A stretch of DNA of 5,423 bases, taken from the IMG/VR virus record IMGVR_UViG_2706794691_000011; one strand, 5' to 3'. How positions within the stretch are numbered: the first letter of the stretch is position 1; every line of letters starts with the position of its first letter. Under the pieces are notes generated by a model, which was not told the DNA's origin, did no database searches, and saw only the letters and a program-made list of their open reading frames with translations. Shown here in pieces: positions 470 to 1,393 of the stretch. Position numbers and translations under genes: made by a program. The DNA comes from a virus. Taxonomy: Duplodnaviria > Heunggongvirae > Uroviricota > Caudoviricetes.

Positions 470-1120
470 ATGAAGTGGATTGTGATTGATACNNNNNNNN
501 NNNNNNNNNNNNNNNNNNNNNNNNNNNNNNNNNNNNNNNNNNNNNNNNNNNNNNNNNNNNNNNNNNNNNNNNNNNNNNNNNNNNNNNNNNNNNNNNNNNN
601 NNNNNNNNNNNNNNNNNNNNNNNNNNNNNNNNNNNNNNNNNNNNNNNNNNNNNNNNNNNNNNNNNNNNNNNNNNNNNNNNNNNNNNNNNNNNNNNNNNNN
701 NNNNNNNNNNNNNNNNNNNNNNNNNNNNNNNNNNNNNNNNNNNNNNNNNNNNNNNNATATAGCACCCTGACTGATACTGTAGTACCTAAGGTTCCAGAAA
801 CTGTGATGTATCCGGNNNNNNNNNNNNNNNNNNNNNNNNNNNNNNNNNNNNNNNNNNNNNNNNNNNNNNNNNNNNNNNNNNNNNNNNNNNNNNNNNNNNN
901 NNNNNNNNNNNNNNNNNNNNNNNNNNNNNNNNNNNNNNNNNNNNNNNNNNNNNNNNNNNNNNNNNNNNNNNNNNNNNNNNNNNNNNNNNNNNNNNNNNNN
1001 NNNNNNNNNNNNNNNNNNNNNNNNNNNNNNNNNNNNNNNNNNNNNNNNNNNNNNNNNNNNNNNNNNNNNNNNNNNNNNNNNNNNNNNNNNNNNNNNNNNN
1101 NNNNNNNNAAGAGCAAATAA
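470..1120 (+). CDS. hypothetical cargo protein A (up to 216 aa, mostly masked); N-terminus MKWIVIDT...
   Basis: ATG at 470 with Shine-Dalgarno AAGGA (459-463) 6 nt upstream. In the readable middle segment 757-815 this is the only open plus frame, and the codons look coding (G-rich first positions). The end at the TAA at 1118-1120 is uncertain because an in-frame stop could lie in the masked parts. Orientation is opposite to the phage late genes. Confidence 0.45.
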   Translation: MKWIVIDXXXXXXXXXXXXXXXXXXXXXXXXXXXXXXXXXXXXXXXXXXXXXXXXXXXXXXXXXXXXXXXXXXXXXXXXXXXXXXXXXXXXXXXXXYSTLTDTVVPKVPETVMYPXXXXXXXXXXXXXXXXXXXXXXXXXXXXXXXXXXXXXXXXXXXXXXXXXXXXXXXXXXXXXXXXXXXXXXXXXXXXXXXXXXXXXXXXXXXXXXXXXXKSK

Positions 1121-1393
1121 TTCTGAATTAGCAACCATGAACTCATCGCAAACCCTCTGTATAGCATCACTATTCAGAATAATAACGTCTCTTCCCGAAA
1201 GACGATCAGGAGTACAGAACAAAACTGTCAAACGGCTGAAGGCCTTTGCTCGTGCTGCATTGACTATATCAATACGCTGCCTAAGGATGAAACACCCCGA
1301 CGCCTCATCAATATTCACTCTACCCACACCATATGAATGATAAATATTTAATGCTGAAAAAACCATTAGACCGTATAACAAACACTCAATCAA
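1109..1393 (-). CDS. hypothetical cargo ORF B, N-terminal part (at least 95 codons readable; 3' end inside masked region)
   Basis: Open minus frame across all 285 readable nt; about one third of codons start with G and nearly half end in T (coding signature in AT-rich DNA), whereas the overlapping plus ORF 1137..1340 has an antisense-like pattern. Start is either TTG at 1393 or ATG at 1366; both have weak ribosome-binding sites. Converges on gene A. Confidence 0.35.

Follow-up and report, generated by a model that had tools for sequence, protein, structure and literature searches.

What is encoded by the minus-strand open reading frame (ORF) that lies downstream of three tRNA genes in a stretch of Caudoviricetes DNA (IMG/VR record IMGVR_UViG_2706794691_000011), and does its expression depend on these tRNAs? 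The whole stretch of 5,423 nucleotides (nt), hereafter the window, corresponds in its minus-strand reading to the late-control region of a lambdoid prophage, and the frame in question, ORF B, can be read at 1109–1393. A first-pass annotation, made from the letters of the window, had proposed that ORF B is coding, that it is rich in codons served by the adjacent phage tRNAs and may depend on them, and that together with the plus-strand gene A it forms a two-gene module with opposed transcription. The analysis presented here indicates that ORF B is, with good probability, a genuine small protein-coding gene that belongs to the conserved, uncharacterised lambdoid-prophage family phrog_2873. Two segments of the window are masked (816–1108 and 1456–1678), and all statements on both are drawn from relatives, which are designated by L numbers; window coordinates are obtained from those of L001 by subtracting 3392.

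ORF B and its protein family

On the reverse complement, the frame is open from TTG 1393–1391 to the edge of the mask, with 95 sense codons and no stop, as first described. It comprises 117 codons from the same TTG in unmasked relatives (L001 4785..4432). Its length alone is weakly beyond chance, because 62 of 2000 shuffles (3%) of a 616-nt AT-rich region reach at least 117 open codons. The comparison with relatives is more telling. Seven diverged homologues contain no stop in this frame; the other five frames contain 2–16 stops across this set, with a single exception, an antisense frame in L016. The plus-strand ORF that overlaps ORF B had been suspected to be antisense, and this suspicion was correct, since its frame is interrupted by 2–6 stops in 6 of the 7 homologues. 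The ratio pN/pS is not usable to tell sense from antisense here, as one antisense frame mirrors the sense signal (0.37–0.53), and stop counts were therefore taken as the discriminating evidence. Against two E. coli homologues at ~70% nucleotide identity, the ratio of non-synonymous to synonymous substitution rates (dN/dS) is 0.22–0.31, and differences at third positions are about twice as frequent as those at first or second positions.

The 92-amino acid (aa) protein matches phrog_2873 over its full length (E 9.2e-58, residues 1–92 on profile positions 17–108 of 108). This family has 44 members, found in Escherichia, Shigella, Citrobacter, Serratia, Morganella and Xenorhabdus. Homologues in other E. 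coli lineages are 56–64% identical to ORF B, those in Citrobacter, Serratia, Morganella, Xenorhabdus and on E. coli plasmids 20–42%, and all are 91–99 aa long. Purifying selection conserves the frame in Escherichia, Citrobacter, Serratia and Morganella, which are four genera of enterobacteria. ORF B is an already-known member of the PHROG family, where it is listed under 'unknown function', and it does not differ from the family. NCBI and UniRef list the exact 92-aa protein, from more than 250 contigs, as a 'hypothetical protein' (WP_001017789.1; the title of identical entries reads 'MULTISPECIES: hypothetical protein [Enterobacteriaceae]'), and a literature search returned no paper mentioning WP_001017789.1 or phrog_2873. 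At the DNA level, 1185 of 5426 complete E. coli genomes contain the ORF B region with an identity of at least 95%. The frame, almost never annotated in these genomes, thus represents a real conserved phage gene, for which the probable start can also be corrected.

The local G+C content around ORF B is 39.6%, and an open frame arising by chance in non-coding, AT-rich DNA would be compatible with a length that hardly exceeds random expectation (3% of shuffles attain it) and with the lack of a call by the Prokaryotic Genome Annotation Pipeline (PGAP). This explanation retains almost no probability. It is contradicted by same-length homologues down to 20% identity, by openness that is specific to the frame, by dN/dS values of 0.2–0.3 and by a confident structure prediction, and the homologue evidence refutes it.

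The gene probably starts at GTG 1318 and encodes 92 aa, rather than 117 aa from TTG 1393. The N-termini of the family align at this GTG, which is codon 26 of the TTG frame, and distant members begin there. With tblastn, the 92-aa protein finds 1318–1109 of the window at 98% identity over residues 1–70. A purine-rich, Shine-Dalgarno-like run precedes the 92-aa start in homologues (AGGAG in L016, AAGGA in L018 and L020). The 25 upstream codons are poorly modelled (AlphaFold predicted local distance difference test (pLDDT) 47–56 over residues 1–30). In L004, this extension has been cut off by an IS3 insertion, and the protein called by PGAP is the 92-aa WP_001017789.1 with a GTG start.

Rare codons and the adjacent tRNA genes

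In Shiga toxin (Stx) phages such as 933W, stx is located downstream of ileZ-argN-argO, and it has been hypothesized that these tRNAs assist stx expression. The parallel with ORF B rests on codon counts, which were exact in the first-pass annotation: the 95 visible codons include AGA 2, AGG 2, ATA 2 and CGA 1 (plus CGT 3 and CGG 0). The adjacent tRNAs are likewise cognate, with Arg-UCU reading AGA/AGG, Arg-UCG reading CGA/CGG and Ile2-CAU reading ATA. The E. coli K-12 genome average for AGA, AGG, ATA and CGA together is roughly 11 per 1000 codons. Visible ORF B reaches 74 per 1000 (7/95), about six times this average (binomial p ~1e-4), and the full 92-aa gene 97 per 1000 (9/93) versus 29 per 1000 (48/1669) in neighbouring prophage genes (Fisher p = 0.002). 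An elevation over host and neighbours consequently stands, also over the full gene. However, it does not amount to an excess over base composition, nor is it specific to the frame. Composition predicts 5.75 rare codons against 7 observed in the visible part and 6.4 against 9 in the full gene. In the alternative frames, these codons number 7 and 5 on the strand of ORF B and 5, 13 and 4 on the opposite one. The ratio of observed to compositionally expected rare codons is 1.4 for ORF B and 0.38 for its neighbours. What distinguishes ORF B is the absence of rare-codon avoidance, not positive enrichment.

Homologues in other loci give a similar picture. Where no tRNA gene was found in the locus, rare codons occur at 65 per 1000 (L016) and 82 per 1000 (L020); the Citrobacter homologue has 10 per 1000. 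The tRNAs and ORF B also assort independently, with tRNAs but no ORF B in L005 and in the O157 locus L022, and ORF B but no tRNAs in L016 and L007. Like stx of 933W, ORF B belongs to a late-strand order of Q, tRNA Ile2/Arg/Arg, gene and lysis genes, and both genes are rich in AGA, AGG and ATA. Unlike stx, it has codons that are explained by composition and tRNAs that come and go independently of it, and its product has no sequence or fold relation to Stx.

A dependence of ORF B on the tRNAs is consequently not supported, although three observations agree with it: the anticodons match the rare codons used, these codons are not avoided in ORF B as they are in its neighbours, and the gene sits downstream of the tRNAs in the slot that stx takes in the 933W layout. 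Against these stand a count that does not go beyond composition and is equalled out of frame, the comparable density in tRNA-less loci, and independent assortment. The load of AGA, AGG, ATA and CGA most probably reflects the AT-rich composition of the gene and its lack of codon adaptation. It is plausible that the phage tRNAs assist AT-rich late genes in general. A literature search on ileZ, argN or argO with rare codons found nothing. By themselves, rare codons beside phage tRNAs are no evidence of dependence; in this case AT-rich DNA yields them in any frame.

Gene order between Q and the lysis genes

Homologues of ORF B occupy a recurrent position. In L016 (Escherichia), L010 (Citrobacter), L018 (Serratia) and L020 (Morganella) they lie, co-directionally, between Q (often accompanied by a methylase gene) and the holin/lysozyme cassette. 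The window follows the same order, Q, tRNAs and ORF B being encoded on its minus strand (Table 1), and its Q, methyltransferase and tRNA genes are the same genes that PGAP annotates in close relatives. A holin gene follows downstream in L001, L003, L016, L010 and L020, which in the window would be beyond the left end.

Table 1. Features of the window, from Q on the right to gene A on the left, followed by the frame antisense to ORF B.
Feature	Coordinates	Strand	Basis and remarks
Q-type antitermination protein gene	3774..4595	-	273-aa ORF; 'antitermination protein' in L001 and L005; homologous L016 gene with Pfam Antiterm
DNA methyltransferase gene	3' end at 2170	-	between Q and tRNA cluster
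tRNA cluster upstream of ORF B	1880..2129	-	ARAGORN and Rfam tRNA
tRNA-Ile2(CAU)	2054-2129	-	ARAGORN; CAU tRNA called tRNA-Ile by PGAP in L003 and L005
tRNA-Arg(UCG)	1970-2046	-	ARAGORN
tRNA-Arg(UCU)	1880-1956	-	ARAGORN
Intrinsic-terminator-like hairpin directly past tRNA-Arg(UCU)	1848..1865	-	consensus scan: 7 base pairs (6 G-C), then TTTTTTTT
STnc100-family small RNA (sRNA) element between tRNAs and ORF B	1659..1803	-	partly masked; Rfam RF02076 45.5 bits, gathering threshold 47
25-codon in-frame extension from TTG 1393	1319..1393	-	probably 5' leader rather than protein; absent in distant members
ORF B coding sequence, visible part (70 codons)	1109..1318	-	92-aa protein from GTG 1318-1316; member of phrog_2873
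ORF B 3' end, masked: last 22 codons and stop (1040-1042)	1040..1108	-	inferred from collinearity with L001 and L006
DUF3927 (P1 TciB-like) gene, truncated, 43 aa, masked	873..1004	-	placed by collinearity alone
Gene A start (MKWIVID), IraM-like anti-adapter	470..492	+	3' part masked, seems to diverge from intact IraM
Overlapping 67-aa ORF	1137..1340	+	antisense shadow, no gene; no family match

The fullest order is that of L016: Q, methylase, AraC-family regulator, ORF B, TerB-like, DUF3927, and holin. By PHROG and NCBIfam, the AraC-family protein belongs to phrog_1450 (best NCBIfam match YdeO/GadX), the TerB-like protein to phrog_632 and the DUF3927 protein to phrog_1470 ('TciB-like'). In the window-type lineage the AraC-like gene is gone, and about 600 nt with the TerB-like gene are deleted relative to L016. 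A 43-aa DUF3927 gene, co-directional with ORF B, is annotated 35 nt downstream of it in L001, L003 and L006. Its product matches Pfam DUF3927 (1.7e-27), and only the C-terminal half is homologous to the 50-aa form.

This arrangement may be explained by an ancestral state in which ORF B was part of a shuffled cassette set, placed just upstream of the lysis genes and consisting of the AraC-like gene, ORF B, the TerB-like gene (P1 TciA-like) and the DUF3927 gene (P1 TciB-like). The window lineage would then have lost the AraC-like and TerB-like genes and truncated DUF3927, leaving ORF B as an intact orphan. Its expression would come from the Q-antiterminated late transcript, reading through the tRNAs, the terminator and the STnc100 element. 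The terminator-like hairpin (GGCTCGC...GCGGGCC, followed by T8) sits between the tRNAs and ORF B, so that read-through would need antitermination or a local promoter.

The genes of the interval are present or absent independently of one another, and the Q-to-holin region is thus a series of independently shuffled cassettes, namely the tRNAs, AraC-like, ORF B, TerB/DUF3927, STnc100 sRNA, IraM and nanS-p. O157:H7 prophages, for instance, have AraC, tRNAs, TerB and DUF3927 but no ORF B; in L022 (E. coli O157:H7 F1273), positions 3179–4938 hold an AraC-like gene, tRNA-Ile, tRNA-Arg, a TerB family gene and DUF3927. Such shuffling is useful context for work on the cargo of Stx phages. The boundaries can be sharp. 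The TerB-like protein is 95% identical between an E. coli and a Citrobacter prophage (L016 6464–6889 and L010 6489–6914), and the ORF B homologues beside it are only ~42% identical to the window type. TerB and DUF3927 genes also recur beside tRNA genes in unrelated phages (L022 and P1).

The second of these phages offers a comparison with the tciA-tciB-tciC genes by tRNA-Ile2. In L016 and L010, as a likeness to P1, ORF B directly precedes the TerB-like (phrog_632) and DUF3927 (phrog_1470) genes; unlike in P1, the TerB-like gene is deleted in the window lineage. ORF B has no homology to TciA, TciB or TciC, and its identity with TciC was considered and rejected: TciC has 35 aa, and a profile search of the 30-kb tci region of P1 gave no ORF B homologue.

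The convergent pairing of ORF B with gene A, by contrast, is not kept across genomes. In four of six window-type loci, iraM does converge on ORF B, which would suit a two-gene module, although one of these copies (L001) is frameshifted. The gene is absent from the remaining two (L002 and L006), and from every other lineage of the ORF B family. Where relatives carry it, the DUF3927 gene and one to three STnc100 copies intervene between ORF B and iraM. The genes that recur around ORF B share its direction, namely the AraC-like gene before it and the TerB-like, DUF3927 and holin genes after it. The pairing of ORF B and gene A thus appears, from the gene orders compared, to be a mosaic juxtaposition and no module. 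Taken as a whole, the first-pass model, in which ORF B is cargo requiring the adjacent tRNAs and is joined to gene A in a convergent module, is quite unlikely.

Gene A itself combines two affinities. Positions 80–492 of the window are 98.5% identical to loci in which this ORF is annotated as iraM. The visible segment 757–815 is 100% identical to L005 and L006, both IraM-lacking, and has no match to intact iraM loci. Because this segment matches IraM-less lineages, gene A of the window may be chimeric or truncated.

The cassette order of the window is a 59-mer (757–815), 293 nt, ORF B, 285 nt (1394–1678, of which 223 nt are masked), STnc100 and the tRNAs. Searches with patterns that span the masked segments (1436–1455 + N223 + 1679–1698; 794–815 + N293 + 1109–1132) were used to look for the same junctions elsewhere, with the outcome described below. 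A megablast of window 1–2200, 440–1460 and 1300–1900 against complete E. coli genomes returned only non-collinear mosaics.

STnc100 is present in two to three tandem copies in unmasked relatives; those of L006 (3570–3779, 3845–4018 and 4057–4247) score 136–165 bits with RF02076. The copies are found at cassette joints, whose order differs among the window, L005 and L006, and they may serve as recombination linkers. At the element, PGAP annotates instead a pseudogene ('partial hypothetical protein') that runs on the opposite strand.

Two further features lie toward the ends of the window. Just downstream of Q (3667–3773, minus strand), there is a terminator hairpin (leader ~3700–3668) with weak, sub-threshold Rfam matches to isrK (18.9 bits) and the Trp leader (21.8 bits). 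This segment probably corresponds to the short pR'-tR' leader RNA, a type of transcript from which StxS or 6S-like RNAs arise in other lambdoid phages. At the other end, a 62-aa ORF (36–224, minus strand) is a truncated remnant of DUF1737, the N-terminal domain of nanS-p. It is an incomplete pseudogene in relatives according to PGAP, and L006 has a full 617-aa SASA esterase.

Intactness of ORF B and possible roles of its product

Several points stand against the reading of ORF B as a genuine late gene of this family. The stop of ORF B in the window and its 3' neighbour are under the mask, so that the stop is placed from relatives. The exact junction patterns of the window cassette order have no match in the 5426 complete E. 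coli genomes or in viral, GTDB-representative or metagenome contigs, and the arrangement differs from that of every relative found. The Shine-Dalgarno sequence of the window type, GGTGTGGGTAGA, is weaker than that of L016. PGAP leaves ORF B unannotated in almost all of the ~1185 complete E. coli genomes. Among copies at least 98.6% identical, five of six substitutions are non-synonymous and one is synonymous. Pfam, NCBIfam and PADLOC contain no match for the protein, Foldseek searches of PDB and BFVD give only generic coiled-coil hairpins (prefoldin, EmrA; E at least 0.08), and a profile search of PDB sequences yields nothing below E 0.09.

Part of this list would also fit ORF B of the window lineage being an intact but functionless remnant of a decayed cassette, drifting toward a pseudogene. 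We consider this possible, albeit doubtful. It is in line with the loss of the AraC-like and TerB-like neighbours and the truncation of DUF3927, with a Shine-Dalgarno sequence that has decayed from GGCAGGAGTAGA to that of the window type, with the missing PGAP call and the excess of non-synonymous changes, with the sporadic in-frame deletions and frameshifted variants that occur, and with the lack of codon adaptation. On the other side, five further copies of the window type (L002, L003, L004, L006, and L009) have an intact ORF, the region is at least 95% identical over at least 80% coverage in about 1183 complete genomes, and more than 250 contigs carry the exact protein. However, window-type copies are ~99% identical, which leaves little time for decay, and intactness is thus weak evidence either way. 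Similarly, six substitutions within E. coli are too few to read current selection in the window lineage. A genuine coding gene of phrog_2873 remains the preferred reading of ORF B.

The product has a mass of ~10.4 kDa, an isoelectric point of 4.8–5.7 and no hydrophobic segment. In the AlphaFold model (mean pLDDT 79; block means mostly 83–97 over residues 31–110, with 68 at the 61–70 turn), two long antiparallel helices (28–58 and 75–106 in the 117-aa numbering) are joined by a short turn with a conserved TPDR motif. The residues R48, N89 and N100 are invariant. The protein is predicted to be a soluble, acidic helical hairpin. Because it shows no enzymatic or membrane features, it would most likely be a protein-binding accessory factor made late in infection.

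One specific partner has to be weighed. PsrA, PsrB and PatE are prophage AraC-like regulators of enterohaemorrhagic E. coli (PMC10877973). ORF B could be a small anti-activator or partner of an upstream prophage AraC-type regulator (YdeO/GadX/Psr/PatE-like), comparable to TraM and the ANR proteins. In two diverged lineages, L007/L008 and L016/L017, an AraC-family gene lies ~90–130 nt upstream of the 92-aa start. The genes directly upstream of the homologues in L007 and L016 are of the YdeO/GadX type, and the O157 locus L022 has, in the same Q-to-lysis interval, an AraC-family gene, possibly of the Psr class, whose product is 57% identical to the L016 protein. With its helical-hairpin fold, the product is similar to small regulators that bind other proteins, and a chain of the TraR-TraM anti-activation complex is among the non-significant fold matches (E 0.74, the best PDB Foldseek hit having E = 0.15). 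However, an AraC gene is missing beside ORF B in most of the family, namely in the window type, in Citrobacter, Serratia and Morganella and in the plasmid copies, and O157 prophages contain the regulator but not ORF B. In addition, all of the PDB fold matches are non-significant (E at least 0.15), and no significant similarity to TraM or ANR was found in sequence (Pfam) or fold (PDB Foldseek). Such a role is improbable, slightly more so than the tRNA-dependent cargo.

A wider proposal would make the phrog_2873 hairpin a conserved, functionally important protein encoded by the first gene of the late transcript and missed by the RefSeq pipeline in more than 1000 E. coli genomes. It would act either with the TerB-like/DUF3927 membrane pair on lysis timing or envelope state, or as an anti-activator of AraC-type regulators of acid resistance and type III secretion of the Psr/PatE class. 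In this full form the proposal is speculative and rather unlikely; if the family did regulate lysis or Psr/PatE regulators, its importance would be moderate. What remains of interest is a helical-hairpin protein, uncharacterised and largely missed by RefSeq, that prophages of four sampled genera encode downstream of Q and upstream of the lysis genes.

Two minor observations concern the family. In the protein database, the ORF B product falls into a 90%-identity cluster whose representative is the unrelated 50S ribosomal protein L9 (149 aa), which is a clustering artefact. A 91-aa member, P0036, is encoded (gene at 6001–6276) on Rep3-type plasmids of E. coli (contigs L013–L015); tblastn searches with ORF B and P0036 against the phage collection found mEp460 only. 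The P0036 gene is located outside any prophage late region, beside a gene for a PapB-like regulator and a fimbrial operon of the chaperone-usher type that resembles K88, and a tRNA-Thr gene lies ~600 nt upstream.

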